From IMG/VR virus record IMGVR_UViG_3300029775_000009, positions 1 through 36,221 of that record: a DNA stretch of 36,221 nucleotides; one strand, 5' to 3'. The stretch is from a virus. Positions 6,708 to 36,221 of the stretch are shown piece after piece. The notes below the pieces were generated by a model. That model saw only the letters and a list, made by a program, of their open reading frames with translations. It searched no databases and was not told the DNA's origin. Position 1 is the stretch's first letter. Every line of letters starts with the position of its first letter. The position numbers and the translations under genes were made by a program.

Positions 6708-7139
6708 ATGAGTATTATGACAGTTATTGTGATTGCTATTGTGGCAGTCGCTATTGTAGCTGTTTGCTATACCTGTATTTATCTTGCAAAGCACGGAATT
6801 AATGTACAGGGTGGACTGCAGACGGCAGATGCAGGGCTGACTATCGCTAATACCGTAACTGACACACTGAAAGCCGCTATGCCTAATAACAAGGCCATAA
6901 GCGTAATTGATAAGGTTGTCGATTACGCGCATACGGGAGTGCAGGCAGCCGAACAGATGGCAAAGTCCGGCCAGATTACAGCTGCACAGCGTAAGGAACA
7001 GGCAAACCAGTACATCACTACTGCGCTGAATTATGCAGGCATTGAAGTAACACCGGAAATTCAGACAGCAATTGACGGAGCGGTTGAGTGTGCTGTTGCG
7101 GCACTGCCAAAGTCTAATTTGCCCGTAAAGGTAGCCTAA
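6708..7139 (+). CDS. Holin, LL-H family-like
   Basis: 143 aa with an N-terminal TM segment (IMTVIVIAIVAVAIVAVCYTCIYL) and a long helical tail with a QRKEQA...GIEVTPE..IDGAVE pattern, as in Holin_LLH proteins. RBS GGAGG. It is the last gene before a bidirectional terminator. Confidence 0.65.
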   Translation: MSIMTVIVIAIVAVAIVAVCYTCIYLAKHGINVQGGLQTADAGLTIANTVTDTLKAAMPNNKAISVIDKVVDYAHTGVQAAEQMAKSGQITAAQRKEQANQYITTALNYAGIEVTPEIQTAIDGAVECAVAALPKSNLPVKVA

Positions 7140-7154
7140 ATCAAATGATTCTAT

Positions 7155-7196
7155 AAAAATCCCCCGGTTTCCTTAATTGGAGATCGGGGGATTTTT
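7155..7196. terminator. Bidirectional rho-independent terminator
   Basis: AAAAATCCCCCG (7155-7166) pairs with CGGGGGATTTTT (7185-7196). A-run and T-run flanks allow function on both strands. The stop of the minus-strand RHH gene lies in the loop. Confidence 0.7.
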
Positions 7197-7382
7197 TGTA
7201 AGTCGTTCTATTCTTTCACGAATTGAGGTAGTAATAAATTCATTTAGTGTTTCATTATTTTCAGCCGCTAAAGCTTTTATTTTGGCTTTATATCCTTTCG
7301 GCACATAAGGGTATAGCCTGTCATATGACTTATAATTATATTTTGTGTGCGCCTTTATAGCCGCCTTAGTTGCTTTTGGCAT
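7173..7382 (-). CDS. Ribbon-helix-helix (Arc/CopG-like) regulator, divergent from the Cas-like operon
   Basis: 69 aa. YPYVPKGYKAKIKALAAENNETLNEFITTSIRERIERL fits a beta-strand/helix/helix RHH pattern. It is divergent from, and shares its control region with, the 7486 operon. Confidence 0.6.
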   Translation of the reverse strand: MPKATKAAIKAHTKYNYKSYDRLYPYVPKGYKAKIKALAAENNETLNEFITTSIRERIERLTKNPPISN

Positions 7383-7434
7383 TTTTAATCACCCGATTAT
7401 TTATTATGCACTAAAAACATTATTAGCGCAAGTA

Positions 7435-7463
7435 TTGTATATGATAACGTTATCATATATAAT
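7435..7463 (+). promoter_or_regulatory. Sigma-70-type promoter with palindromic operator for the 7486-10709 operon
   Basis: TTGTAT (7435-7440), a 17-nt spacer, then TATAAT (7458-7463). The spacer holds the perfect 14-bp palindrome TGATAACGTTATCA (7442-7455). The ATG at 7486 follows RBS AAGGAAGTGG. Confidence 0.6.
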
Positions 7464-7485
7464 AGATATAAAGGAAGTGGCAATA

Positions 7486-8469
7486 ATGTATGAAAGTGAG
7501 ATAGCTTTTGCCAGACGCCTTATTTCAGGCAGGCTGGAATTTACAGGGGAGTGTGCAGCTTGTGGTGGCGTGCTTGTAGAACCATCAACAATAAAAAAAG
7601 CCTGTGGTTCAAAATTTACAGACTATTCAGGACTAATCAAGTTTGGTGGTAATGAAATTTGTGAATCATGCGTAAAGCTCATGGATAAGAAAAATCTGTC
7701 AAAAGTAATTTACTATCATGACGGAATCTGTGAGCGCGGCAGATTTGATATAGCTTGGTCGGTAATGACAACTCCACCGAAAGGCAAAAATTTCATTTTA
7801 TCAGTACCATATTCATTTAAAAAACATCATTTGCTTTCTGCCGGAATTAGTACATCTGAAAATATGCTGATTGGAACAGATGATGGAACAGTACATTATA
7901 TTTTCAAACGCGATAAAAAAGTGCTTGAAGCTGTAAAACAATCGTCTGTTGATGGTGTACCACGGGCGCAGGTAATGAACGGCAATTATACTGCTATGAC
8001 CATGTCAAAGTTTGGGGAAGACTATATAAGGAATTTGGAAAGCATTGTAAAGGATGCGCGCGAAAGCGGATTGCTTAAATTAGCGTTTCGCGCGCTTCCA
8101 AAGCAAGAAAAAATCAAATATTGCAAAGAGGTAATAGACATGCTTGATGCTTCAGATGTAAAAGCAAGTGAAATTCTTGCACAGGTTGCATATAATTCTG
8201 GGCTTCGTGTAACGCGTGGCTTGGATTTTTGGAATCAGATTTTTCCACACAGAGTGTACAGATTCAGAAAGTTTGCATTAAATGATATGGTAAACAGGCT
8301 ATGCGAACAATTTGCAATTCCACCACAATTTATGCAGGGCATTATTGCACAGCTTGAAAGCTTGACGGATAAAGAAAGTAAGCAAATACAAAAGTCAATT
8401 GAAAACCATACTCAACTTGTTCTTGGAATTGCGTATGAAAAAGTTAAGGAGATAAAGAAAAATGCTTAA
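7486..8469 (+). CDS. Zinc-ribbon protein, candidate Cas8-like/Csf1-like large subunit
   Basis: I start this gene at ATG 7486 (RBS AAGGAAG at 7471-7477), not at the track's 7345, which would read through the promoter. It is 327 aa with C23-x2-C26 ... C40 ... C59-x2-C62 (nt 7552-7671), then an alpha-helical C-terminal half. It is the first gene of an operon whose next two genes carry RAMP hallmarks. Confidence 0.4.
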   Translation: MYESEIAFARRLISGRLEFTGECAACGGVLVEPSTIKKACGSKFTDYSGLIKFGGNEICESCVKLMDKKNLSKVIYYHDGICERGRFDIAWSVMTTPPKGKNFILSVPYSFKKHHLLSAGISTSENMLIGTDDGTVHYIFKRDKKVLEAVKQSSVDGVPRAQVMNGNYTAMTMSKFGEDYIRNLESIVKDARESGLLKLAFRALPKQEKIKYCKEVIDMLDASDVKASEILAQVAYNSGLRVTRGLDFWNQIFPHRVYRFRKFALNDMVNRLCEQFAIPPQFMQGIIAQLESLTDKESKQIQKSIENHTQLVLGIAYEKVKEIKKNA

Positions 8470-9340
8470 TGTAAATGAAAGAAAGATTACCGCTACAATT
8501 ACTGCTGTATCGCCAATTTCTCATGCTGGATTTTCAGAAGTCAGTACAGGAAATTCTATGATGTTTCGGCGTGTGCCATGCGTATCGCTCCCGGGGTTTC
8601 CGGAAATTCCGGTTGTTTCCGGAAATGCACTGCGCGGAATTATGCGCCGCAGGCTTATGACAGAAGTATATAACAAAGTAGGATTTACATTTGAAAAGTT
8701 TAAAGATGTGTTTTCATCTGAACAGACAGCAAAGCGAGCATGGGATAAACTCTATGCGGCATTATTTTGCGGCGGTACACTTAATGGAAAATTAGAGGAT
8801 ACAACAGACCCTATTGAATTGCGAAAAATAAGAGAACAGTTTCCGGCGCTTTCATTGCTTGGTTCAGCGCTTTATACAAAGATGTTGCCCGGTATGGCAC
8901 AAATTGGCTTTGCTTGGCTGATTTGTGACGAATCAATACGAGGCGAACTTGTAACCAAAACAGATGATACACTTGTGATTAAAGCAGAAGATGCAATCAC
9001 TGAAATTGGTCAGGTAAGGCACATTGACCGTGAAAATGCTGACCCGGAGATAACAGGTGTTACGCCAATGCCGATCACAATTGAATGTCTTGCACCCGGT
9101 GCTTCATTACAATCAAATATTTCGCTTTTGCCGCAGACGACAAGTATAGAAAAATCATGTCTCATTCATGGCTTAAAGCTAATTGACCATATTGGTGGAA
9201 AACTTAGTAGCGGATATGGCGCAGTTAAAATGCATATAACTGAAAACGATGACGACGAATATACAAGCTGGATTAAAGACAGTTCAAACAATGAAACGTT
9301 TGAAAACTTTCTTATTGAGATGGCGAAGGGAATGATTTAA
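8462..9340 (+). CDS. RAMP protein, Cas7-like (Csf2/Csm3-type backbone subunit candidate)
   Basis: 292 aa. Motifs in order: ITATITAVSPISHAG; IPVVSGNALRGIMRRRL (nt 8606-8656), resembling the P-G-S-[SA]-L-[KR]-G-x-[LM]-R motif of Csm3/Cmr4/Csf2; LFCGGTL; FPALSLLGSA; and a C-terminal glycine-rich loop IGGKLSSGYGAV (nt 9191-9226). The gene starts 8 nt inside the upstream gene. Confidence 0.55.
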   Translation: MLNVNERKITATITAVSPISHAGFSEVSTGNSMMFRRVPCVSLPGFPEIPVVSGNALRGIMRRRLMTEVYNKVGFTFEKFKDVFSSEQTAKRAWDKLYAALFCGGTLNGKLEDTTDPIELRKIREQFPALSLLGSALYTKMLPGMAQIGFAWLICDESIRGELVTKTDDTLVIKAEDAITEIGQVRHIDRENADPEITGVTPMPITIECLAPGASLQSNISLLPQTTSIEKSCLIHGLKLIDHIGGKLSSGYGAVKMHITENDDDEYTSWIKDSSNNETFENFLIEMAKGMI

Positions 9341-10044
9341 TGGTATACAAAATCATTTTTCAGATGTTAGCACCTACATGTTTGCGCGGGCATATTCATC
9401 TTGATGCATTACTTTCAGCAGTGAATCCAGCGATGCACAAAAAGCAAACTATTGTAAATTGTATGAGTGCAAAAAATGATAATTTGTTTTCCGCGCCATT
9501 GCCATTGGCTAAAGTAAAAATTCATGACAAGTGGATATGGTGCTGCAGTTCAGAAATTTTGCCTCCGGAAGCAAAAATGTCAACAGAAACATATACAAAG
9601 CGTCGTACACCTGAAGATGTAATGATGTTACAGCGCCGGTTTGTCCGCGGCTCAACAGCCATGCGTGATAGAATGATTAAAAATTCTGTTATACTTACCC
9701 CAACAATCAACTTTTTATGCGCTGCGGATGAAAGGTCAAAGCCATGGCTTGAAAAGCTGGTCAATGACGTATTTGAAATTGGAAGCTTAAGAAAGCAGGG
9801 ATACGGGGAAGTGAAAAGTGTTTCTGTTTGGGAAACAAACTTCGACTGGAAAGACTGTTTACTTTCGCCAAAAGGGAAAGCATTACGCAGAATACCGATA
9901 GAAATGTTGAAATCAGCGTCTTCATGCTCACTTAACACAATAAAACCACCATATTGGATGCACGCGTATGATGAATTTTCAATTGATGTTGGACAAGAGA
10001 TGGAACTGAATCCGGAGGTGGAGTGTACTTGCCACAGTATGTAA
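9340..10044 (+). CDS. RAMP protein, Cas5-like (Csf3-type candidate)
   Basis: 234 aa. It has an N-terminal HIHLDALLSAV (nt 9391-9423) and a glycine-rich loop IGSLRKQGYGEV (nt 9778-9813). Its ATG overlaps the upstream TAA by 1 nt. Confidence 0.45.
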   Translation: MVYKIIFQMLAPTCLRGHIHLDALLSAVNPAMHKKQTIVNCMSAKNDNLFSAPLPLAKVKIHDKWIWCCSSEILPPEAKMSTETYTKRRTPEDVMMLQRRFVRGSTAMRDRMIKNSVILTPTINFLCAADERSKPWLEKLVNDVFEIGSLRKQGYGEVKSVSVWETNFDWKDCLLSPKGKALRRIPIEMLKSASSCSLNTIKPPYWMHAYDEFSIDVGQEMELNPEVECTCHSM

Positions 10045-10709
10045 TTCCGAGGTGTCCGGACAAAAAGAACGAAACTGATATTGAAAATTTGATACCACTT
10101 AACAGGCTTTTTGCTTACCCGTCGGAGCCGTTTCTTCAAAATGGAGGGTACACAATACTTGATAGCGGCGCTTATGGACTATACCAGCGTGGTAGCAGCA
10201 TCAACTTGAACTATATGAAAAAATTAAGTGCACATTATGAAAAATATGCAACTGAAAATGTGTTTTGCGTTGCACCTGATGAATATTTAAATCCAATTGC
10301 TTCCCTGAGTAATTTCATAAGCTGGAAAAATTCAAAACTATTTCAGTCAGTTTGTCCGGTTATACAAAGCTGGCATGAAAAACAAATCGATGAAAATTGT
10401 ATAATGAAGCAAGTAAAATTTTATCGAAAAAATACGAATCAAGATAGAATATTCTTTTCAAATAATGCCCTTACTGCCAGTGAGGCAAGCTTCTTTGGAC
10501 TGAATGAGATATTCAGAAAGATTCATCAAGCAGGGTTTAAGTGGATTCATGATCTTGGCGCAGGGTGGAGTCTTAAAGACATTAAGGAATGGAAAAAATT
10601 CGAGCAGCTGGACAGCATGGACAGTATTGCTTATTACAGCACAAAAAATATAAACGAGTTTGGTTCACTCAATCCATTTGAAAACGTAAAATCAATCTGT
10701 CGATTGTAA
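10023..10709 (+). CDS. tRNA-guanine transglycosylase / DpdA-like (TGT superfamily) enzyme candidate
   Basis: 228 aa. Four motifs occur in the order found in TGT enzymes (DSGGFQ ... FDEC ... [LM]GVG ... DxFD). They are ILDSGAYGL (D47, nt 10161), VAPDEY (D86), IHDLGAGW (aa 175-182) and LDSMDS (aa 196-201). The GTG start at 10023 (GGAGG at 10014-10018) overlaps the upstream gene by 22 nt; TTG 10029 is an alternative start. Confidence 0.5.
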   Translation: MYLPQYVIPRCPDKKNETDIENLIPLNRLFAYPSEPFLQNGGYTILDSGAYGLYQRGSSINLNYMKKLSAHYEKYATENVFCVAPDEYLNPIASLSNFISWKNSKLFQSVCPVIQSWHEKQIDENCIMKQVKFYRKNTNQDRIFFSNNALTASEASFFGLNEIFRKIHQAGFKWIHDLGAGWSLKDIKEWKKFEQLDSMDSIAYYSTKNINEFGSLNPFENVKSICRL

Positions 10710-10742
10710 AAGTCAAAGCCATAGACAACTGTATGTAACATC

Positions 10743-10782
10743 AAAAAAAAGCCCAACGGAAATTAATTCGTTGGGCTTTTTT
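10743..10782. terminator. Bidirectional rho-independent terminator
   Basis: An A8 run, GCCCAACG (10751-10758), a loop, CGTTGGGC (10769-10776), then a T6 run. It closes the + operon and the convergent minus-strand operon. Confidence 0.8.
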
Positions 10783-10832
10783 ATTTTCCAGAATGGAGAG
10801 ATTAAAAATACAATATTATTATACTATCTGTG

Positions 10833-11246
10833 TCAAGCTTCAGCGCCGTTTGTCAGTCCCATCAAAAACGCAGTACGTGCCGTATCAATGTCTTTTGAGC
10901 CTTTGCAAATTTCTAGCGGGGCATCGGATTTACTGATTAGGCGTTTTAAAAGTAACGACTCAAATTCGCTTGAATCTTTATGCTGCACGTCAATGAGCTG
11001 ATTGAAAAACGCATGTTCACTTTTTTTCAATCCTGCTGCCTTTGCTGCCGCTATTCCAGCGTTATACATTTCTTCTTTCATTTGTAGCTCTCCTTTTTTC
11101 GCTTTAATATATGGTTCTTCCGAGTCAATGACCCAGTTTCGCCCAATTTTTTTGGCGGTTTTGAACCCGCCACGGCAAGCCTTTTGCCGGACGGAAATTG
11201 CTGCTTTACCGTGTGCAGCTGCGTATTTAGATAGACTAATTAGCAT
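10833..11246 (-). CDS. HTH DNA-binding protein (Aca-like position)
   Basis: 137 aa. The N-terminus ISLSKYAAAHGKAAISVRQKACRGGFKTAKKIGRNWVI resembles excisionase/MerR-type HTH domains. It is the second gene of a two-gene minus-strand operon. Confidence 0.5.
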   Translation of the reverse strand: MLISLSKYAAAHGKAAISVRQKACRGGFKTAKKIGRNWVIDSEEPYIKAKKGELQMKEEMYNAGIAAAKAAGLKKSEHAFFNQLIDVQHKDSSEFESLLLKRLISKSDAPLEICKGSKDIDTARTAFLMGLTNGAEA

Positions 11247-11650
11247 TTTAAGTCCTCCAACTCATCAACTTTTTCAAGCTCTACTTCGTAAAATCCCATT
11301 TCCTCAAAATCTTCGTCGGAAGAAACAGAGATTATTTTTAGCTTAGTTTCTGCTGGAAGCAGACATTCTCCTTCGGACTCGCAGCCACCCGCATCCAGCA
11401 CGTCACATTCTTCGTCATTATCATAGTCTACTTTGTGACATTCGATGTCATCAACGTACAAAACATATTCTACAGAATTTTTAAGTTCTGGGTAAAAGTC
11501 TTCCGTACCGTCTGGGCCCATCCAGCTTTCTGCTTTTCCGCGATTATCATAAATATCTCCAGCTTTGAAAGCGCCTTTATAATTAAGCGTTATAATTCTC
11601 GCAAGGTCCGCTTTACAGTTAATTTTATTTGCAATTTCATTCTTTGTCAT
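11240..11650 (-). CDS. Acidic, Cys-containing hypothetical protein (anti-defence candidate)
   Basis: 136 aa with RBS AAGGAAGGAAG. The C-terminal half is very rich in D/E. It is the first gene after a consensus promoter. Confidence 0.5.
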   Translation of the reverse strand: MTKNEIANKINCKADLARIITLNYKGAFKAGDIYDNRGKAESWMGPDGTEDFYPELKNSVEYVLYVDDIECHKVDYDNDEECDVLDAGGCESEGECLLPAETKLKIISVSSDEDFEEMGFYEVELEKVDELEDLKC

Positions 11651-11682
11651 TTTGATTACTTCCTTCCTTAATTTCTATATTT

Positions 11683-11711
11683 ATTATACATCTATATCGA
11701 TGTATTGTCAA
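11683..11711 (-). promoter_or_regulatory. Consensus sigma-70 promoter with an inverted repeat in the spacer
   Basis: The minus strand reads TTGACA (11711-11706), a 17-nt spacer, then TATAAT (11688-11683). The spacer contains TACATC-N6-GATGTA. Confidence 0.7.
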
Positions 11712-11858
11712 TACTTTTTTGAAAATATTTTAAAAAAAATCCGCTCTGACCTCCCCGGCGGTGTCAAAGCAGAATTCGAGTCGCATTTGATGTTTAAAAC
11801 GGTGTATTCGTGGTATTGACGCGAGTACTAAAGTACAGCATTCTGTACTCAAAAAGGC

Positions 11859-11898
11859 AGAAAAAATGCGGCCTCACGGGAAAATCCCATGAAACCGC
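11859..11898 (-). terminator. Rho-independent terminator of the RHH operon
   Basis: Minus-strand RNA GCGGUUUCAUGGG-AUUUUC-CCGUGAGGCCGC forms a 13-bp stem with G-U pairs, followed by AUUUUUUCU. Confidence 0.7.
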
Positions 11899-12024
11899 AC
11901 TTTCTAATTCTTTCCGCATTTGTGAACAGTCCATCATTGTATATAGATTTCAGATTCAGTAAAATTCTGCTCTCTTAACCTTTCTTTCGCCGGAAGGCAT
12001 ACGATGTCTGTAAGCAGCATATCG

Positions 12025-12204
12025 TTACTTCTCCCGGATATACTTTTCTGCGAACTCTCTAATAAGAGTATTCACGGTTGTTCCGTTTTCGTATGCTTTC
12101 CAGCGAAACGCTTCCGCAATATCGGCCCGCATTGAAGCACTTATGTGCCCCATATGTTTTGCATCCCAGCGCTGAGACGCCCTCTTTTGTGCTTCACTTT
12201 TCAT
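12025..12204 (-). CDS. Ribbon-helix-helix protein (59 aa, not in the ORF track), paralogue-like of 7173..7382
   Basis: My translation of the minus strand gives MKSEAQKRASQRWDAKHMGHISASMRADIAEAFRWKAYENGTTVNTLIREFAEKYIREK*. RBS AAAGGAGGTG. The layout matches the 7173 protein (K-rich N-terminus, beta-strand, ..A...G.T.N.[LF]I...I.E). Confidence 0.6.
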   Translation of the reverse strand: MKSEAQKRASQRWDAKHMGHISASMRADIAEAFRWKAYENGTTVNTLIREFAEKYIREK

Positions 12205-12347
12205 TTAAGCACCTCCTTTATAACCCTGCAATTCCACGACAGCTGCAATTCTTCCATGCTCGTTCCACACTGCATTGGCAGGAATGGATACACCGCTCCT
12301 GCCGGTGCTGCCGGCTTTTTAATTTTGTACTTTTGCTCTGCCATCAT
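12201..12347 (-). CDS. Possible 48-aa ORF coupled by an ATGA overlap to the RHH gene
   Basis: MMAEQKYKIKKPAAPAGAVYPFLPMQCGTSMEELQLSWNCRVIKEVLK*. Its stop overlaps the RHH ATG. There is no convincing RBS. Confidence 0.25.
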   Translation of the reverse strand: MMAEQKYKIKKPAAPAGAVYPFLPMQCGTSMEELQLSWNCRVIKEVLK

Positions 12348-12405
12348 CGGTGCTGGTGGAGCGGTTCCAGCAGACGCCCTTACGGGCGTTTCGGCTTGTA
12401 CTCCA

Positions 12406-12696
12406 TTATCCCATCTCGTCCTCTTCGACCTTCCGAATCACGTTCCTGTTTTCGTCTACCCATACCGGCGTAAAGTCTTGCAGGTGGTCCTCGTTGAAAT
12501 AGTCCTCCTCAGTTTCCTTTTCTGCTTCTTCGAGTGTCATACCCTCGTCCATAAGGCCCTCAATTTCATACCATAGCGTCCCGTTTTCACCTAGCGCAAA
12601 CTGTTCTTTCAAGTATTTTTTGTCGCTCTCGATGATTTCATCTTGACTAAAAATAACACCAGTATAATTGTTTTCGTACATGATTTCCTTTTTCAT
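12406..12696 (-). CDS. Highly acidic small protein (anti-defence / DNA-mimic candidate)
   Basis: I start it at ATG 12696 (GGAGG at 12709-12705, 8-nt spacing) rather than 12711. It is 96 aa and very rich in E/D (..EEAEKETEEDYFNEDHLQDF..EEDEMG). Confidence 0.55.
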   Translation of the reverse strand: MKKEIMYENNYTGVIFSQDEIIESDKKYLKEQFALGENGTLWYEIEGLMDEGMTLEEAEKETEEDYFNEDHLQDFTPVWVDENRNVIRKVEEDEMG

Positions 12697-12739
12697 TTTT
12701 GTTTCCTCCATTTTTTGTTTATCTCTTGACTACTCTTAT

Positions 12740-12768
12740 ATTATATACTGTATACAGTATAAAGTCAA
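12740..12768 (-). promoter_or_regulatory. Consensus sigma-70 promoter with an 18-bp perfect palindrome
   Basis: The minus strand reads TTGACT (12768-12763), a 17-nt spacer, then TATAAT (12745-12740). The palindrome TATACTGTATACAGTATA (12744-12761) fills the spacer and overlaps the -10. Confidence 0.7.
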
Positions 12769-12897
12769 GCGTTTTTACAAAAAAGATGAATTATTTTTGT
12801 AATCAAAAAGTAGTCAAAAGGTAGTCAAAGACCAAAAAGAGTAAAAAGAAACCGCACAGCCAAACCTAAAAAACGGCTTAACCATGCGGTTTTTCTT

Positions 12898-12947
12898 TGG
12901 AGCTGCTGGGCGGGCTCGAACCGCTGACCTCTTGACTGCCAGTCAGG
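12898..12947 (-). other. tRNA 3'-terminal fragment (T-arm, acceptor 3' strand, CCA): candidate attP core
   Basis: The minus strand reads ..AGCGG-TTCGAGC-CCGCC-CAGCAGC-T-CCA, i.e. a GTTCGAGCC T-loop context and a CCA end at 12898. No matching 5' acceptor strand (GCTGCTG) or D-arm lies upstream. A hairpin plus T-run follows downstream (12842-12897, minus strand). Confidence 0.5.
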
Positions 12948-12990
12948 TCGTCAATCTCCAGAAAATCCGCATTGCAAAGCCATTTTTCAA

Positions 12991-13209
12991 CTATGAATTT
13001 TGTTTTGACTGACTGCTTGACTGACTAGCAAATAATTTTTGTATTTTTTCATCTGCCATTTCTTCTATTTTATTTGATGGGATATTATTTATTATGCCAC
13101 CTTCATATTTTTGAACAGTTTGTTTACTAACACCGATTTTTTTGAGCTACTTCTGCCAGGGTTAACCCAGCAGAAGATCTATACTTTTTAATATTATCTT
13201 TGAGCGACA
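12991..13209 (-). pseudogene. XRE-family HTH gene disrupted by two compensating frameshifts
   Basis: The ATG frame (start 13209) gives MSLKIILKSIDLLLG*. The next frame reads ..DNIKKYRSSAGLTLAEVAQKNRC*. After a T7 run (13137-13143, A7 on the minus strand) the first frame resumes with IGVSKQTVQKYEGGIINNIPSNKIEEMADEKIQKLFASQSSSQSKQNS*. Joined, these read as a canonical XRE HTH. Confidence 0.6.
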
Positions 13210-13298
13210 TGTTCTTTCCCCTTTATTTAATGCTGATTGTATTACACCACATTTAGCGTATTAAGCAACATTTTTTTAGAAAAAAGCTAAAAAGTCTA

Positions 13299-13327
13299 TT
13301 GATAAGCGAAAGCACAAGCGATATAAT
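13299..13327 (+). promoter_or_regulatory. Consensus early promoter with AAGCGA repeats
   Basis: TTGATA (13299-13304), a 17-nt spacer, then TATAAT (13322-13327). The spacer is AGCGAAAGCACAAGCGA, and a further AAGCGA lies at 13339-13344. Confidence 0.65.
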
Positions 13328-13366
13328 AGTAGCGTAATAAGCGATTCACAGAAAGAAGGTGAAAAA

Positions 13367-13576
13367 ATGATTGCAGTAAATGAACTAAAAGGCAAAATTG
13401 TTGCAAAAGGTTTTACGCAAGAACAAGTAGCTAAAATGTTAGGGATTAGTGCAAATACTTTTCGCAAGCGGCTTTCTCGTGGGGTGTTAGGGTCAGACGA
13501 AATCGAAAAGCTAATCAAAATTCTTGATATTGAAGATCCAATGGCTATATTTTTTTGTGAAAAAGCCGCCTGTTAA
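13367..13576 (+). CDS. Small HTH regulator (Cro-like)
   Basis: 69 aa with RBS AAGAAGGTG. The HTH is GFTQEQVAKMLGISANTFRKRLSRG. Confidence 0.6.
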   Translation: MIAVNELKGKIVAKGFTQEQVAKMLGISANTFRKRLSRGVLGSDEIEKLIKILDIEDPMAIFFCEKAAC

Positions 13577-13641
13577 GTGACTAATCTCCGCACCAAATCC
13601 GCTTAAAAAAAGAAAGGAAAAATTTACAAGGAGGCACCATA

Positions 13642-14367
13642 ATGAACGATTTAACAGTATTCAACCGTGGCGGTCAGCTTTACACTGACAGCCGCGACGT
13701 TGCAAAAATGGTTGGAAAAGACCATGCGCACCTTATGCGTGACATCAAAAAATACGTTGGTGTTTTAACTCGATCCAAAATTGGTTTCAGTGATTTCTTT
13801 ATAGAATCCACTTATAAAGACCCTACTGGACGTACTCTTCCCTGTTACCTTATCACAAAAAAGGGCTGTGAATTTGTTGCGAATAAGCTGACTGGCGAAA
13901 AAGGAATTTTGTTCACGGCTACATATATAAATGCCTTTCACAAGATGGAAGATACCATCAAGCAGCTGCCAGCCGCTCAGCCAGAGGATTACAAGCTTAT
14001 CCGTGCTAAAGCCATGGGTCTCAATGCAAAAACAAAAGCTTTCAAGGCTATTATGACCGCCGCAAAAGACAAGCAGCTGTCTGCAGTAGCTGCACAGGTG
14101 TATGGCATCAAGGGCATGGAAAACCTGGCCGGGGAGGGAATTGGCGCACTGCCAGAAACCGGCCCGCTGTACACCGCAACGGAGATTGCAAATGCGCTGC
14201 ATACAACTGCCGCAAAAGTTGGGAAAGTTGCTAATGCAAATAATCTCAAAACAGATGAATATGGTATCTGGGCGCTAGACAAATCCAGATACAGCGGCAA
14301 ACAGGTAAACAGCTTTCGCTATAATCAGCACGGCAAAGACAAGCTGAAAGAGCTTTTCGACGCTTAG
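13642..14367 (+). CDS. Rha-family phage regulatory protein / antirepressor
   Basis: The N-terminus MNDLTVFNRGGQLYTDSRDVAKMVGKDHAHLMRDIKKY is typical of Phage_pRha. RBS AAGGAGG. Confidence 0.75.
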   Translation: MNDLTVFNRGGQLYTDSRDVAKMVGKDHAHLMRDIKKYVGVLTRSKIGFSDFFIESTYKDPTGRTLPCYLITKKGCEFVANKLTGEKGILFTATYINAFHKMEDTIKQLPAAQPEDYKLIRAKAMGLNAKTKAFKAIMTAAKDKQLSAVAAQVYGIKGMENLAGEGIGALPETGPLYTATEIANALHTTAAKVGKVANANNLKTDEYGIWALDKSRYSGKQVNSFRYNQHGKDKLKELFDA

Positions 14368-14470
14368 AGAAAGGACTGGTATAAATGCTTGTTCACTATT
14401 ATACGTTTTGTGAAACGTGCGCGGCTTTAAAAAAATCTTCCAGTGGATTAAAGAAGATGCTTGCAGAGGG

Positions 14471-14497
14471 AAAAAAGTCGCTCCCTACACGGGAGCG
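14471..14497 (-). terminator. Rho-independent terminator downstream of the repressor gene
   Basis: Minus-strand CGCUCCC-GUGUA-GGGAGCG (14497-14479) followed by ACUUUUUU. Confidence 0.7.
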
Positions 14498-14573
14498 TGG
14501 ATTGAAATCTTTGTAGCTCCCTTGCTAACTGAAAAAAGCATTTTCATCTCAGGATTTTTCCGCAGACTATCAA

Positions 14574-14846
14574 TCAAATCGCGCGTTTCATCGTCAAGAA
14601 CAACAATATTATCATGCTCATCTCGGACCTGCACGTTATGTGTGGGTTCTTTTTTTGCTCGTTTCCAAGAAGATAATCAAGCGTCACTCCGAGATAGTTG
14701 GCTATCTTCTGTAGCTTTTCTGTTTTGGGAACGCTACGCCCTCTTTTCCAGTCGCTTAAAGTGCTTTGTGGAACCCCAGTTTCTTTGGATACTCGGTAGG
14801 GAGTAATTTTTCTTTTTTTTAAAAGTTGCTCAAATATTTCATACAT
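14574..14846 (-). CDS. XRE-family CI-like repressor (as read: 90 aa; apparently frameshifted at an A7 run, see findings)
   Basis: I start it at ATG 14846 (MYEIFEQLLKKRKITPYRVSKETGVPQSTLSDWKRGRSVPKTEKLQKIANYLGVTLDYLLGNEQKK..). It has a classic XRE HTH and is divergent from the early promoter at 14892. Confidence 0.7.
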   Translation of the reverse strand: MYEIFEQLLKKRKITPYRVSKETGVPQSTLSDWKRGRSVPKTEKLQKIANYLGVTLDYLLGNEQKKNPHITCRSEMSMIILLFLTMKRAI

Positions 14847-14891
14847 TTTTAGTACACCTTTCACGAATCGGAAAATACTTAGCAAATGCTA

Positions 14892-14920
14892 TTGACTATT
14901 AAGCAAAAGCGAAGTATAGT
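14892..14920 (+). promoter_or_regulatory. Early rightward promoter
   Basis: TTGACT (14892-14897), a 17-nt spacer, then TATAGT (14915-14920). The spacer ATTAAGCAAAAGCGAAG resembles the spacer of the 13299 promoter. Confidence 0.6.
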
Positions 14921-15060
14921 ATATGCATACACAACAAATGCGAGTCAATCCGCATTTGGTATGCTCCGGCTTTCCTATTTATTTTACTCAACAAATGAAT
15001 TACATAGCAAAACCGAAGTAAACACAAGTATAACAATATACAAAGAAAGGAGCTGACATC

Positions 15061-15225
15061 ATGTCAGAATTGTATACTTGCGCCCAAGTTGCCGACAGAT
15101 ACCACGTTAAAACGTTAACCGTGTGGGATTGGATTCGCAAGCACAAGCTTCACGCCAAGAAGATTGGCAAGCAGTACCTTATCAGCAACGAGGACATAAA
15201 GGACTTTGAAAAGGAGGCTACATAA
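15061..15225 (+). CDS. Excisionase/MerR-type HTH protein (54 aa, not in the ORF track), Cro position
   Basis: My translation is MSELYTCAQVADRYHVKTLTVWDWIRKHKLHAKKIGKQYLISNEDIKDFEKEAT*. RBS AAGGAG at 15047-15052. Confidence 0.65.
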   Translation: MSELYTCAQVADRYHVKTLTVWDWIRKHKLHAKKIGKQYLISNEDIKDFEKEAT

Positions 15226-15402
15226 TGAGCAACGTCAAAATTAATGGCCTTGTCACAGTCACCAATATGCAGTTTTATGGCATTGAGGGCGGATTTGGCA
15301 AGGGGGGGAACTAACTTGTCTATCGTATCAGTAGGAGGCATCGCAATACTCCTGGTAATGGTGATTTACACATTTTGGGTGTGGGGAGATGATAACAAAT
15401 GA
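15225..15402 (+). pseudogene. Small ORF interrupted at a G7 run; restored frame encodes a 58-aa single-TM protein
   Basis: As read: MSNVKINGLVTVTNMQFYGIEGGFGKGGN* (stop at 15312-15314). With one G fewer at 15302-15308 the frame continues TNLSIVSVGGIAILLVMVIYTFWVWGDDNK*. That stop (15400-15402) overlaps the ATG of the next gene (ATGA). Confidence 0.35.
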
Positions 15403-15680
15403 TATTTACACATGATGACGTTAAGCAATTTCTTAACAGCTTAACAGACGATGACCTGCTAGCCTTACGTAGCAGATTTAAAGAAATTTTGTCACCACCA
15501 CCTGCAAACACCTACACGGTAGATGACCTGGCAACCAGCCTGCACTTTTCACGTGATACAATAATCAATCGTATCCGCAAAGGAGACTTTGGGGATGTCA
15601 TCCGTGACGGAAGGCGCTATCGGGTGACTGAGAAGGGCCTACAGCAGTACATAAGCAAGTACAATAGGCCTAGCCTTTAG
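15399..15680 (+). CDS. Excisionase-type HTH DNA-binding protein
   Basis: 93 aa. YTVDDLATSLHFSRDTIINRIRKGDFGDVIRDGRRYRV fits the excisionase-family HTH. Confidence 0.55.
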   Translation: MIFTHDDVKQFLNSLTDDDLLALRSRFKEILSPPPANTYTVDDLATSLHFSRDTIINRIRKGDFGDVIRDGRRYRVTEKGLQQYISKYNRPSL

Positions 15681-15749
15681 CAAAAAGCAGCCGACACAGC
15701 GGCACCGGGCGCATACGAATCCTGGGAGAATCTGAGAGGAGATAATACA

Positions 15750-15929
15750 ATGCTAGTCTTTTGGGGCCATGTTTACGCGGCTGTATTGGCCGGTATGGCG
15801 ACCGTTGCTGCGGCAGAGGAATCTGCAAGCAAGCATGCACATCAGCGCAAAGCACAGGCAGTGGCAGCGCGACAGGAACGAATAGAGCGCAATCGGGAAG
15901 ATATGAAGTTTGGCAGGTGGTATGAATGA
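15750..15929 (+). CDS. Small hypothetical protein (59 aa, not in the ORF track)
   Basis: RBS GAGAGGAG. MLVFWGHVYAAVLAGMATVAAAEESASKHAHQRKAQAVAARQERIERNREDMKFGRWYE*. The stop overlaps the next ATG. Confidence 0.45.
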   Translation: MLVFWGHVYAAVLAGMATVAAAEESASKHAHQRKAQAVAARQERIERNREDMKFGRWYE

Positions 15930-16090
15930 AAATCGCAGTAGTAGCGGTGATATCAATAGCAGCAATGTACATAATCATTCGGCTGTCGGTAGGGGCATAC
16001 ATTATCGGAAACCGCAAGCGGCATCCGGTCCGGCACGGTGTCAGCAGTAAACAGTCCGTGATTGAAACTATGGAGGAGGAAAACACATGA
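15926..16090 (+). CDS. Small membrane protein (54 aa, not in the ORF track)
   Basis: MKIAVVAVISIAAMYIIIRLSVGAYIIGNRKRHPVRHGVSSKQSVIETMEEENT*. It has ATGA overlaps at both ends (15926-15929 and 16087-16090). Confidence 0.45.
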   Translation: MKIAVVAVISIAAMYIIIRLSVGAYIIGNRKRHPVRHGVSSKQSVIETMEEENT

Positions 16091-16974: not shown

Positions 16975-17607
16975 ATGACCGCACCTGATAACAGTGGCAA
17001 GATAATCCTTGACCTTTGCGGCGGGACAGGGTCATGGAGCCGCCCATACAAAGAAGCCGGATATGACGTGCGGCTGATTACGCTACCGGATTATGACGTC
17101 CTTACATATGAGCCGCCGAAAAATGTGTATGGAATTTTAGCTGCACCACCATGCACAGAATTTAGTGTATTAAACTGCAAGGCAGAAAATAGAGAGCGGA
17201 ATTTTGACATAGGCTTATCTATTGTAGTGCCATGCCTGCGGATTATCGCAATGTGCCATCCCAAATGGTGGGCGCTCGAAAACCCGGTGGGGCATTTGAT
17301 GGACTATATGGGAAAACCACAATTAATTTTTCAGCCTTGGGAATATGGCGACCCGTGGACGAAACGCACGGCTCTATGGGGCAGGTTTGTACCACCCAAA
17401 AAGCTATACAGCAGCTGGGATGACGTACCAAACAAACTGCCGCTGTACACGCGGCCCGGACGTGGCAAGCCCAATTTTGCATATCTGCACAAATCCGCAC
17501 AAGCACTTATCCCACAGCTTGCATGGGCACATCCACAGACCGATGCAGATTTCAGAGCCATTACCCCGCCCAGTTTTGCAGAAGCATTTTGGAGGGCTAA
17601 CAAATGA
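16975..17607 (+). CDS. Short DNA (cytosine-5)-methyltransferase-like protein
   Basis: Motif I-like ILDLCGGTGSWS, motif IV-like AAPPCTEFS (catalytic PC) and motif VI-like WALENPVG. It is only 210 aa, and no cognate restriction gene is present. Confidence 0.6.
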   Translation: MTAPDNSGKIILDLCGGTGSWSRPYKEAGYDVRLITLPDYDVLTYEPPKNVYGILAAPPCTEFSVLNCKAENRERNFDIGLSIVVPCLRIIAMCHPKWWALENPVGHLMDYMGKPQLIFQPWEYGDPWTKRTALWGRFVPPKKLYSSWDDVPNKLPLYTRPGRGKPNFAYLHKSAQALIPQLAWAHPQTDADFRAITPPSFAEAFWRANK

Positions 17608-34437: not shown

Positions 34438-36221
34438 ATGGCTTCAGGTGGTCGTATCAAAGGAATTACGGTTGAGATTGGTGGCGATACCGGACCGCTG
34501 TCGTCTGCTCTGAAGGGCGTCAACGGTACAATCCGTGAGACTGGGTCGCAACTCAAGGACGTAAACCGTTTGCTAAAGCTCGACCCGACAAACGTCACGC
34601 TGCTCGGTCAAAAAGCTGGAGCTGCGCAAAAAGAACTGCTTGCTTTGCAGGAGAAAGAGAAAACCCTTAAAGCCGCAGACAGCGATTTGAAAAAGCAACT
34701 GTCCGAAGGCAAAATTTCCACGGAGCAATATCAGGCCTATCAGCGCGAACTTATCGCTACGCAGGAAAAAATCAAAGGATTGAAAAAGGAATCCACAACG
34801 GTGGGCAATGTGCTGGAAGCTTTCGGGGAAAAAGCCAAAACTTCCGGGCAGAAAATTGCAAGTGCCGGCGAAAAGATGCTCCCCGCTACTGCAGCAATCG
34901 GTGCGGTTGGCGGTGCCGCAGTCAAAACTGCATCTAATTTTGAGACATCCATGTCGCAGACGGCTGGGGCGCTCGATATCCCCATGAGCAAAATGGGCGG
35001 CCTGCGCGACCTTGCCATGAAAATGGGCGCCGATACGCAGTTTTCCGCTACCGAGGCGGGCAATGCCATGACGGAGCTTGCCAAAGGCGGCCTGACTGAG
35101 GCGGAAATCCAAAGTGGCGCGCTGAAATCCACAATGGATTTAGCGGCATCGTCCGGGATGGAGCTGGGTGACGCGGCAAATACTGTTGTACAGGCGATGG
35201 GCGGATTCGGGCTTTCGGCAAAGGATTCCGCGCAGGCTGTCAACGCTCTGGCAGGCGCGGCGGCGGCATCATCCACGGACGTTGGTCCGCTTGCGGATGC
35301 CCTCTCGCAGTGCGCCGCTCAGGCACATACTGCCGGCTGGAGCATACAGGACACGACGGCAGTGCTGGGCGCTTTTGCGGATGCCGGGATTGCCGGGTCC
35401 GATGCCGGTACATCGCTTAAAACGATGCTACAAAGGCTCGGCGCGCCGACGAATGCCGCCGCGAAGGAAATGAAATCCCTCGGAATCAATGTGTGGGATA
35501 GCAGCGGCCACATGAAAGATGCGGGCGGCATCGCGGATGAATTAAAAACGCACCTTGGCGGGCTATCCGACCAACAGAAGCAGCAGGCGCTGGCTACGAT
35601 TTTCGGCAGCGATGCGACCCGCGCGGCAACGGTGCTGATGGGCGAAGGGTCCATAGGATTATCGAAATACACCAAGGCAACCAACGACCAGACTGCGGCT
35701 TCTCGGCTTGCAAATTCGCAGATGGGCCCGACCGAAAAAGCGCTGGAGCAACTGAAAGGGTCACTTGAAACCGCGGCCATATCCATCGGCACTATGTTGC
35801 TGCCGATGATACAAAAACTGACCGGCTTTATTAAGGGCCTTGCTGACAAGTTCGCCGCGTTGAATCCGCAGCAGCAGCAGATTATCATTACAATTTTAGG
35901 CATTGTGGCGGTCCTAGGGCCGCTATTAATCCTTATAGGAAAATTAAAAGAAGGCATTGGCGGACTAATAGGCGGGATAGCCTTTTTTATAAGACACCCG
36001 ATTGTTGCGGGCATCCTGGTTGCTATTGCCGCGATTGCCGCACTGGTAATCGCGATAAAGCATCTGTGGGATACCAGCGAGGGCTTCCGCAACGGATTAA
36101 TATCCGGGTGGAATAAGATAAAGTCTATATGGTCTGGTGCTCCTGGCTGGTTTGGCAATGTGTGGAATGCTATCCTAGACCATTTTAAGCCAGATATGAT
36201 TTCAACTAGATTCGAGAACGC
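34438..36221 (+). CDS. Tape measure protein, N-terminal part (runs off the window end and continues at base 1)
   Basis: The ATG at 34438 is followed by MASGGRIKGITVEIGGDTGPLSSALKGVNGTIRETGSQLKDVNRLLKLDPTNVTLL, a canonical TMP N-terminus. The frame is open to 36221. The combined length with 1..773 is 825 aa. This ORF is not listed in the track because it has no stop within the window. Confidence 0.85.
   Translation, partial: MASGGRIKGITVEIGGDTGPLSSALKGVNGTIRETGSQLKDVNRLLKLDPTNVTLLGQKAGAAQKELLALQEKEKTLKAADSDLKKQLSEGKISTEQYQAYQRELIATQEKIKGLKKESTTVGNVLEAFGEKAKTSGQKIASAGEKMLPATAAIGAVGGAAVKTASNFETSMSQTAGALDIPMSKMGGLRDLAMKMGADTQFSATEAGNAMTELAKGGLTEAEIQSGALKSTMDLAASSGMELGDAANTVVQAMGGFGLSAKDSAQAVNALAGAAAASSTDVGPLADALSQCAAQAHTAGWSIQDTTAVLGAFADAGIAGSDAGTSLKTMLQRLGAPTNAAAKEMKSLGINVWDSSGHMKDAGGIADELKTHLGGLSDQQKQQALATIFGSDATRAATVLMGEGSIGLSKYTKATNDQTAASRLANSQMGPTEKALEQLKGSLETAAISIGTMLLPMIQKLTGFIKGLADKFAALNPQQQQIIITILGIVAVLGPLLILIGKLKEGIGGLIGGIAFFIRHPIVAGILVAIAAIAALVIAIKHLWDTSEGFRNGLISGWNKIKSIWSGAPGWFGNVWNAILDHFKPDMISTRFEN
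36143..36221. repeat. 79-bp terminal duplicate of bases 1-79 (circular closure signature)
   Basis: Base-for-base identity checked by eye. Confidence 0.95.

Follow-up and report, generated by a model that had tools for sequence, protein, structure and literature searches.

The stretch considered here (hereafter the window: IMG/VR virus record IMGVR_UViG_3300029775_000009, all 36,221 nucleotides) is a circular assembly in which positions 1-79 are identical to 36143-36221, giving a genome of 36,142 bp. Pfam matches mark it as a tailed phage (portal, HK97-type capsid, ClpP protease, large terminase, amidase, holin, Rha, DUF927, SNF2/DEAD helicase and VRR-NUC). Its plus strand carries an operon of four genes, the first three of which encode the Csf1, Csf2 and Csf3 subunits of a type IV CRISPR-Cas effector; the fourth, here called X, encodes a predicted enzyme of the tRNA-guanine transglycosylase (TGT)/DpdA superfamily. 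Very probably, this is a IV-B-type core on which a DpdA/TGT-superfamily accessory substitutes for the CysH-like one. The coding features of the operon are as follows.

7486-8139, plus strand: Csf1 part of gene 1, the type IV large subunit, with a CxxC...CxxC zinc ribbon (PADLOC Csf1_0_IV, E 2e-21, residues 10-210; TIGR03114 cas8u_csf1, E 2e-6, below its curated equivalog cut-off; precomputed Pfam match PF27781 Csf1)
8140-8469, plus strand: Cas11 domain (small subunit) at the Csf1 C-terminus (three-sequence profile of the window, P0179 and P0180 aligned by hhalign to the type IV Cas11 proteins that relatives encode as separate genes: probability 92.5%, E 5e-7, residues 227-325)
8462-9340, plus strand: Csf2, the type IV Cas7 backbone subunit (PADLOC Csf2_0_IV, E 3e-42, residues 8-287)
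9340-10044, plus strand: Csf3, the type IV Cas5 (PADLOC Csf3_0_IV, E 2e-25; TIGR03116, E 3e-14, below its curated equivalog cut-off)
10023-10709, plus strand: X, putative minimal DpdA/TGT-superfamily TIM-barrel transglycosylase-like enzyme (AlphaFold2 model, Foldseek, hhalign to phage 9g DpdA, invariant residues)

The four open reading frames (ORFs; 7486-8469, 8462-9340, 9340-10044 and 10023-10709) overlap successively by 8, 1 and 22 nt. An earlier sequence-only reading of this DNA had given these same boundaries and overlaps, and the motifs on which it relied are all in place: CAAC...CESC in gene 1, IPVVSGNALRGIMRRR and GGKLSSGYG in gene 2, HLDALLSAV and GSLRKQGYGEV in gene 3, and DSGAY, PDEY, HDLGAG and DSMDS in gene 4.

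A type IV-B core with a fused small subunit

The Csf1/Cas7/Cas5-like core proposed in that reading is borne out by the matches of genes 1-3 to type IV Csf1, Csf2 and Csf3 profiles from PADLOC and NCBIfam and to solved type IV structures. The zinc-ribbon cysteines of Csf1 (C23, C26, C59 and C62) are invariant among relatives. Searched against the PDB, the Csf2 family profile finds the "Cas7c" chain of 11fs (7e-40), the IV-B Csf2 of 7JHY (1e-31) and IV-A Csf2 chains (1e-11 to 5e-15); the Csf3 family profile matches IV-A Csf3 (7xfz_B, 4e-18), and the Cas11 profile recovers the Cas11 chains of 11fs (4e-8) and 7JHY (2e-7). The entries 11fs, 11hc and 11hd (chains Cas7c, Cas5c and Cas11c) are the best solved matches for the family Csf2 and Cas11, ahead of IV-B 7JHY; the system that they represent, whose paper could not be identified, is possibly type IV-C.

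Three subunits were described in the sequence-only reading, which recognized Csf1, Csf2 and Csf3 but overlooked Cas11 at the C-terminus of the first. Most relatives have a separate gene of 113-160 amino acids (aa) between csf1 and csf2, matching PADLOC Cas11_IV models at E 1e-16 to 5e-37. The window has no separate cas11 gene, and its Csf1 is ~100 residues longer than usual. Because these extra C-terminal residues align to the Cas11 profile, gene 1 is a Csf1-Cas11 fusion, which completes the subtype IV-B core of the module. The same alignment from a single sequence is weak (59%), and phmmer from the Csf1 C-terminus finds no match.

Free Cas11 may also be made. At the start of the Cas11-like domain (8125-8154), an internal Shine-Dalgarno-like AAAGAGG lies 8 nt before an ATG (Met219), and in a related locus, L033, csf1 has AAGGAGG 8 nt before a TTG around residue 220, at the equivalent place; this arrangement suggests additional translation of Cas11 from within csf1. 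In other lineages, Csf2 is 414-477 aa long and no separate cas11 gene is present; the Csf2 of L016 matches Cas7 models only over residues 201-433, and a putative Cas11 is probably fused to the N-terminus of these long Csf2 proteins.

X as a predicted minimal member of the TGT/DpdA superfamily

Structure prediction from a 37-sequence alignment gives X a TIM barrel of alternating strands and helices at a predicted local distance difference test (pLDDT) value of 97.3. Foldseek with this model against the PDB places Z. mobilis TGT first (E ~1e-4, TM 0.5-0.57), and among predicted viral structures (BFVD) the top matches are dominated by phage "queuine tRNA-ribosyltransferase" proteins of DpdA type (E 7e-7, TM ~0.6). 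At the level of profiles, hhalign pairs X with phage 9g DpdA over 156 columns (probability 96.7%, E 4e-10), with DSGAF, (P)D, HxxG and xDS in register, X D47 opposite 9g D72 and X D200 opposite 9g D215; the probability for the DpdA of Cellulophaga phage phiSM is 83%. The first family profile found only noise in the PDB and phmmer of X found nothing there; a broadened family profile matches ArcTGT 1IQ8 (E 0.011), with the catalytic Asp95 and the FDS nucleophile motif aligned. The TGT/DpdA-like character claimed earlier for gene 4 thus finds support in the model, the structural matches and the alignment to 9g DpdA. Gene 4 itself matches no curated library.

The DpdA/TGT active site, as described with the Salmonella DpdA structure, consists of a general acid/base Asp with an aromatic residue at +4, a base-recognizing Asp, a Gly-rich loop and a nucleophilic Asp, the three Asp being invariant in TGTs and DpdAs (PMC10164549). 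The whole set is found in X: D47, Y/F51, D86, H176-x-L-G-x-G181 and D200 vary little or not at all within the family, the D86 assignment being made from strand position, with HMMER putting it 6 residues off ArcTGT D130. The zinc site CxCx2C...H does not occur in the window X or in most of the family and is kept only in the distant members P0139 and P0165; two other distant relatives have sub-threshold matches to Pfam DpdA (PF23859; E 4e-4 and 0.016). Because both the zinc site and the insertion pinned by zinc are gone, X is a minimal form of the superfamily TIM barrel, outside every described DpdA subfamily.

Two other identities were considered. A CysH-like or PP-loop enzyme is rejected on fold and motifs; a generic aldolase- or TrpA-like TIM barrel, for which PDB Foldseek scores are comparable, is rejected on the motif-level hhalign to DpdA, the relatives that bear the zinc motif and gene context.

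Spread of the X family and its linkage to csf genes

The X family is small, with 72 clusters in a word-indexed search and 114 representatives at E <= 0.001 among 1.84 billion proteins, and its members come almost entirely from viral metagenome contigs. Median identity within the family is 36%, with the catalytic residues invariant. Searching IMG/VR with the X alignment gave 28 loci; csf2, csf3 and X lie on one strand in 27 of these, and csf1 is present in 26 (L005 is cut at a contig end, and L017 is apparently frameshifted, its csf3 being seen only by tblastn and an earlier HMM pass). A scan of 185,579 species genomes added three loci, a lower bound given the strict patterns used, all in metagenome-assembled genomes (MAGs; Brachyspira, Massilibacteroides and Phototrophicaceae). 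In all 28 viral loci and the three genome loci, the csf genes are on the X strand, and nearly all hold the four genes together. Dozens of independent contigs repeat this set of genes, which puts the arrangement far outside what chance would produce. No X homologue was found in 50,697 GenBank phages or 72,556 PLSDB plasmids, and no Csf2 homologue in the GenBank phages.

The commonest gene order is csf1-cas11-csf2-X-csf3, that of the window being csf1/cas11-csf2-csf3-X, and the architecture is kept across Bacillota phages and MAGs of Bacteroidota, Spirochaetota and Chloroflexota. At least 24 contigs, drawn from different samples (fermentation metagenomes among them), encode exactly the X protein of the window; one of these contigs has ~4,400-fold coverage. 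This recurrence marks the module as circulating and maintained under selection.

A protein of 306-316 aa with no Pfam or PADLOC match adjoins X in five loci (L014:5039-5959, L026:5057-5983, L028:944-1894, L031:8796-9740 and L037:7825-8754) and is preceded by a 66-70-aa protein in at least four (L014, L028, L031 and L037). Its distant homologues are "hypothetical" proteins of Cronobacter and Citrobacter jumbo phages, and it may be a further tailoring or partner enzyme.

Two alternative accessories on one core

A second view of the operon comes from its backbone. Searching IMG/VR with Csf2 gave 99 confirmed Csf2-encoding stretches, 80 of which were kept (a set that includes re-hits of contigs found with X); by this count, IV-B-like modules are common in tailed phages. 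The dominant accessory in these loci is a 223-441-aa protein with an SGGKDS PP-loop and a Pfam PAPS_reduct match, that is, the IV-B CysH-like protein. Its association with IV-B has been called "nearly invariant" or "strictly conserved" and is seen as key to IV-B function (PMC7038947, PMC8175902).

Dereplication of Csf2 at 90% identity left 78 viral groups, of which 34 have the CysH-like protein, 27 have X, 17 have neither and none has both. The two accessories share a slot: 22 loci read csf1-cas11-csf2-CysH-csf3 and 21 read csf1-cas11-csf2-X(-QueT)-csf3. The window encodes no PAPS_reduct protein, and X is in that slot. A rough neighbor-joining tree of Csf2 interleaves X-type and CysH-type loci, and some backbones are close: L031 (X) and L096 (CysH) are 81% identical in Csf2, 71% in Csf3 and 64% in Csf1, and the Csf2 of L004 (X) is 70-73% identical to those of L065 and L071 (CysH). 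Given the mutual exclusion, the shared slot and these close Csf backbones, X is best regarded as a functional alternative to the CysH-like protein on the same machine, in keeping with the likeness to CysH-linked, array-less IV-B that had been drawn from the letters. Recruitment of the accessory by the Csf complex for nucleic acid modification has already been proposed for IV-B (PMC8175902).

Canonical CysH-type IV-B operons are themselves common on viral contigs (34 dereplicated groups, among loci L039-L116); IV-B is usually described as plasmid-borne, chiefly in Actinobacteria (PMC7038947). A further set of csf operons (L047-L049, L068, L070, L109, L110 and L112) is flanked by a 173-221-aa protein that looks ParB-like, with only a weak HTH_23 Pfam match, and some of these also adjoin a protein of 218 aa that weakly matches N6/N4 DNA methylases. 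Most have neither X nor CysH; L068, L110 and L112 have the CysH-like protein. The ParB-like and methylase-like neighbors may be further alternative modification accessories.

Salvage and tailoring genes for 7-deazaguanine

Three independent clues to the substrate of X come from its relatives. The L002 group has a QueT gene (PF06177; E 9e-29) separating X from csf3, and in L019 a QueT gene (E 1e-27) separates csf1 from cas11; YhhQ/Vut_1 (PF02592) lies between csf1 and cas11/csf2 in L022 and L023 (E 2e-37) and directly after X in L036 (precomputed Pfam). Queuosine precursors have two known families of transporters, QueT and YhhQ (COG1738) (PMC11130926). In L022 and L030, X adjoins a YkgJ-type cysteine-cluster protein resembling CEPG_00054 of phage phiSM (38% identity, tblastn E 2e-29, for L022; 36%, E 7e-33, for L030). 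CEPG_00054 itself adjoins the phiSM DpdA and is the preQ1 methyltransferase DpdM (PMC10516641).

QueT, YhhQ and DpdM-like genes are confined to X-type loci (present in 5 of 28 after dereplication, against 0 of 51 others; Fisher p = 0.004), which points to a salvaged 7-deazaguanine as the likely substrate of X. Because relatives carry these salvage and tailoring genes, base exchange is favored over excision, and it is reasonably probable that X performs 7-deazaguanine exchange chemistry. The absence of 7-deazaguanine biosynthesis genes that had been remarked on earlier thus holds for this genome, but not for salvage and tailoring functions in its relatives. Having none of these genes, the window would leave X to draw on host queuosine precursors.

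Arrays, Cas6 and guides

Neither a CRISPR-like array nor a tRNA nor an Rfam CRISPR family turned up in the closed genome. Among the 34 other window ORFs, Pfam and PADLOC profiles identified phage structural, lysis and replication genes but no Cas1/2/6, DinG/RecD-type Cas helicase, CysH, QueC/D/E or FolE; the SNF2/DEAD helicase sits in the replication module, outside the csf operon. Earlier statements that array, cas6, cas1/cas2 and DinG-, RecD- or Cas10-like genes are missing hold within the genome, but relatives differ as to Cas6: three X-type lineages carry a Cas6-family gene (L033, L004/L076 and L026, the last of Cas6f type). L033 is the closest relative of the window operon, with the order X-cas6-sigma-like-csf1/cas11-csf2-csf3. 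The presence of Cas6 in these three lineages suggests that processed RNAs may matter in some members. Only one IV-B complex has been studied, and it forms on heterogeneous RNA of non-CRISPR origin (PMC7937560).

A proposed mechanism and its rivals

The reading preferred here, to which we give a little more credence than to its opposite, is of a phage-borne IV-B variant in which a Csf ribonucleoprotein and X together exchange guanine for 7-deazaguanine. The array-less ribonucleoprotein (Csf1-Cas11 fusion, Csf2/Cas7 filament and Csf3/Cas5) would bind nucleic acid and present it to X. X would take out a guanine from the nucleic acid held or opened by the complex and would then insert a 7-deazaguanine base of the preQ0/preQ1 type. 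The incoming base would come from the host queuosine pathway, and in relatives through import by QueT or YhhQ and DpdM-like tailoring. In place of the lost zinc-pinned insertion of X, the Csf complex would supply substrate binding and base presentation. Cas7 filaments of class 1 complexes flip out every sixth target nucleotide; by analogy with this base flipping, and given the lost insertion, dependence of X on the Csf complex is plausible. The likeliest purpose would be to mark DNA, foremost the phage's own genome, against host restriction or CRISPR, although competitor or host DNA could also be marked.

Several observations pull the other way. Phage DpdAs normally act without a Cas partner (PMC10516641), so that the need for a Csf complex is unexplained. 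X has no match above threshold in Pfam, NCBIfam, PADLOC or PHROG, Pfam TGT (PF01702) and DpdA (PF23859) giving none even at E <= 1, and its PDB Foldseek scores against TGT are just marginally above those for other TIM barrels. The Csf1 model, built from three sequences only, reaches a pLDDT of 55 and is too poor for use. Pairwise distances of X correlate weakly with those of Csf proteins (rho 0.32-0.39, against 0.61-0.67 among the Csf proteins themselves), which fits repeated cassette exchange and lends no support to tight co-evolving contacts. In the Brachyspira MAG (L030:6729-8675), the genes run csf3-DpdM-like-X and neither csf1 nor csf2 precedes them; among the X loci seen, L030 alone lacks a full Csf set, and because of it the full complex may not be obligatory for X. 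The window, a closed genome, has no transporter, DpdM or deazaguanine synthesis genes. Finally, no CRISPR-like repeats occur in the closed genome or within ±6-10 kb of 31 related loci (distal arrays in Cas6 relatives may lie beyond this range), and no guide source is visible.

A stronger form of the proposal makes Csf an RNA-guided or templated writer, which would form an R-loop or hybrid on DNA so that guanines flipped out at every sixth position are replaced by X with 7-deazaguanine. This is unlikely. If true, it would amount to natural, programmable, sequence-addressed base replacement, and CysH-type IV-B would be the same kind of machine with another chemistry.

Alternatively, the target may be RNA. 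X would then modify guanines in Csf-bound RNA, tRNA or host RNAs, altering translation or disabling captured host CRISPR RNAs (crRNAs), an anti-CRISPR that combines decoy and inactivation. The TGT superfamily is ancestrally one of tRNA enzymes, the PDB profile match of X is to ArcTGT, the IV-B complex noted above was found on non-CRISPR RNA, and the idea of IV-B as a crRNA sponge is already published (PMC7038947). Against these points, no phage or virus known to have 7-deazaguanine DNA lacks a gene for a DpdA-family enzyme, by which the base is put into the DNA (PMC10516641), the closest characterized relative of X by hhalign is such a DNA-modifying DpdA, and DpdM-like partners are known from DNA modification pathways (PMC10516641); a multi-subunit anti-CRISPR decoy has, moreover, been deemed unlikely (PMC7038947). 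We regard an RNA target as distinctly unlikely.

It is also conceivable that one operon holds two independent functions, X being an ordinary stand-alone DpdA that hypermodifies phage DNA and Csf an unrelated, co-travelling complex for RNA binding or regulation. The solitary action of phage DpdAs (PMC10516641), the weak distance correlation and the pairing of X with csf3 only in L030 are what this view would expect. It sits poorly with the distribution of the family, which is found beside csf genes in every locus examined and is missing from the GenBank phages and plasmids searched, and with the position of X, which takes exactly the place of CysH, in many loci between csf2 and csf3, has translational overlaps with its neighbors and is mutually exclusive with the CysH-like protein. 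X also lacks the zinc and insertion elements of autonomous DpdAs. Independent functions are, to our minds, less credible than an RNA target.

In targeted base excision, Csf loaded with host or other small RNAs would bind competitor or host DNA, and X, as a glycosylase, would leave abasic sites as the interference output. Type IV systems act in conflicts between mobile elements, mostly without nucleases (PMC7038947, PMC12669027), and TGT/DpdA chemistry starts with base removal through a covalent Asp intermediate (PMC10164549), an Asp that X retains. Properties of X may differ without the zinc subdomain, and Cas6 or Cas6f in some relatives suggests processed guides. QueT, YhhQ and DpdM-like proteins in X-type operons point instead to supply and tailoring of an incoming base, and neither this genome nor the surveyed flanks of the 31 related loci hold an array or guide source; we place excision slightly below the two preceding readings. 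A decaying type IV remnant beside an inactive TIM-barrel protein, as the lack of array, adaptation genes and nuclease might suggest, is disfavored and highly improbable, since all ORFs are intact with coupled overlaps, catalytic residues are invariant in so divergent a family, an identical X recurs across contigs, and the architecture is kept from Bacillota phages to MAGs of three other phyla.

Flanking signals and the rest of the phage genome

The operon is bounded by the following features, read from the letters except for the first.

7173-7382, minus strand: Arc/ribbon-helix-helix (RHH)-like small regulator, 69 aa (phrog_13890, E 1e-11; Arc-like phrog_582, E 0.005; YlcI/YnfO, E 2e-4, weak)
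7438-7463, no strand: perfect 22-nt palindrome TATATGATAACGTTATCATATA (7438-7459) overlapping TATAAT (7458-7463), in the 103-nt divergent intergenic region
7470-7477, plus strand: ribosome-binding site AAAGGAAG ahead of the ATG at 7486
10743-10787, no strand: putative bidirectional intrinsic terminator at the operon end, with a G+C-rich stem of 9 bp and a loop of 10 nt between an A run and a T run

The divergent RHH gene, promoter/operator and terminator named in the sequence-only reading correspond to these elements, the RHH assignment through weak Arc/RHH-type matches. The palindrome is a candidate operator and TATAAT a putative -10 box. The terminator hairpin, AGCCCAACG-N10-CGTTGGGCT followed by a T run (10750-10787), does not appear in the output of a consensus terminator scanner because its 10-nt loop exceeds the 8 nt that the scanner passes. 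The RHH-like regulator is present on near-identical contigs bearing the window's own operon and has no homologue in the first 28 related loci searched; it is specific to the phage lineage of the window and lies outside the conserved module.

The terminase of the window is nearest to those of ~35-37-kb siphophages of Bacillota, and a megablast search of GenBank phages with the first 25 kb of the window gave no match. The csf operon and early region (7001-16000) have a G+C content of 37-44% and the structural genes one of 46-57%, a contrast that suggests mosaic origin. Contigs with an identical operon have different downstream genes. The early region also holds a further small RHH-like ORF (12025-12204, minus strand) and, between two small minus-strand ORFs, a match to the Rfam type II hammerhead ribozyme (12332-12396, minus strand; 39 bits against a gathering score of 37, E 1e-4). 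A 210-aa ORF at 16975-17607 (plus strand) has a weak C5 cytosine methylase match (E 0.0025).

Relation to known systems

Subtype IV-B is the least understood of the CRISPR-Cas subtypes: it lacks both array and nuclease, the activity of its CysH-like partner is not known, and reviews state its function as unknown (PMC7038947, PMC8175902). On close Csf backbones, that partner has been swapped repeatedly for an enzyme family whose chemistry, guanine to 7-deazaguanine, is well understood, and a vague idea of nucleic acid modification by IV-B can now be turned into experiments on defined products. If the mechanism proposed here is true, it would assign a class of function, nucleic acid modification, to all of IV-B, would define a Cas-dependent branch of phage DNA hypermodification and would possibly offer a compact natural scaffold for targeted base replacement.

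The combination of genes had not been recognized as a described subtype when it was read from the letters, and the literature searched, including the 2020 type IV survey, a 2021 review, the 2025 classification update and the 2019-2023 DpdA papers, with subscription literature mostly outside its coverage, yielded no published description and no link between type IV and transglycosylase, DpdA or 7-deazaguanine. The module falls within subtype IV-B, from whose canonical form it departs in the accessory enzyme, and does not constitute a new type. With the IV-B system of Mycobacterium sp. JS623 (PDB 7JHY) it shares four core proteins, the lack of array, adaptation genes, helicase and nuclease, a mobile-element carrier and a single accessory in the same slot, and Csf2 identity between some X-type and CysH-type backbones amounts to 70-81%. 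It differs in its accessory, predicted to be a TIM barrel of TGT/DpdA fold rather than of the 3'-phosphoadenosine-5'-phosphosulfate (PAPS)-reductase/ATP alpha-hydrolase fold, with no CysH-like gene present; in its carrier, a tailed phage rather than an actinobacterial plasmid; and in the fusion of Cas11 to Csf1.

Phage DpdAs (DpdA1-4, including those of 9g and Cellulophaga phage phiSM) resemble X in their TIM-barrel TGT fold, in the motif order DSGAF...D...GxG...xDS and in being phage-encoded, and a DpdM-like neighbor accompanies some X relatives as it does the phiSM enzyme. X differs in falling below the Pfam DpdA/TGT thresholds, in having no FolE, QueD, QueE or QueC nearby, in lacking the CxCx2C...H zinc site, which has been described as a conserved DpdA-family feature (PMC10164549), and in its place within a csf operon in the loci found, where no described DpdA is encoded (PMC10516641).

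In bacterial Dpd restriction-modification, DpdA and the ATPase DpdB insert preQ0 into DNA and DpdC converts preQ0 to 7-amido-7-deazaguanine (ADG) (PMC10164549). There, too, a DpdA-type enzyme relies on a partner for DNA modification and takes its base from the host queuosine pathway (PMC10164549); here the partner would be an RNA-binding Cas complex rather than the DpdB ATPase, no DpdB-K genes are present, and a phage takes the place of the genomic island as carrier. Type IV-A, with CasDinG, and the CRISPR-associated transposons follow the same logic, in that a nuclease-less Cas5/7/8(/11) complex serves as the platform for a recruited enzyme, but these have arrays, Cas6 and defined crRNAs, and their effectors are helicases or transposases rather than base-modifying enzymes (PMC12669027, PMC7038947).

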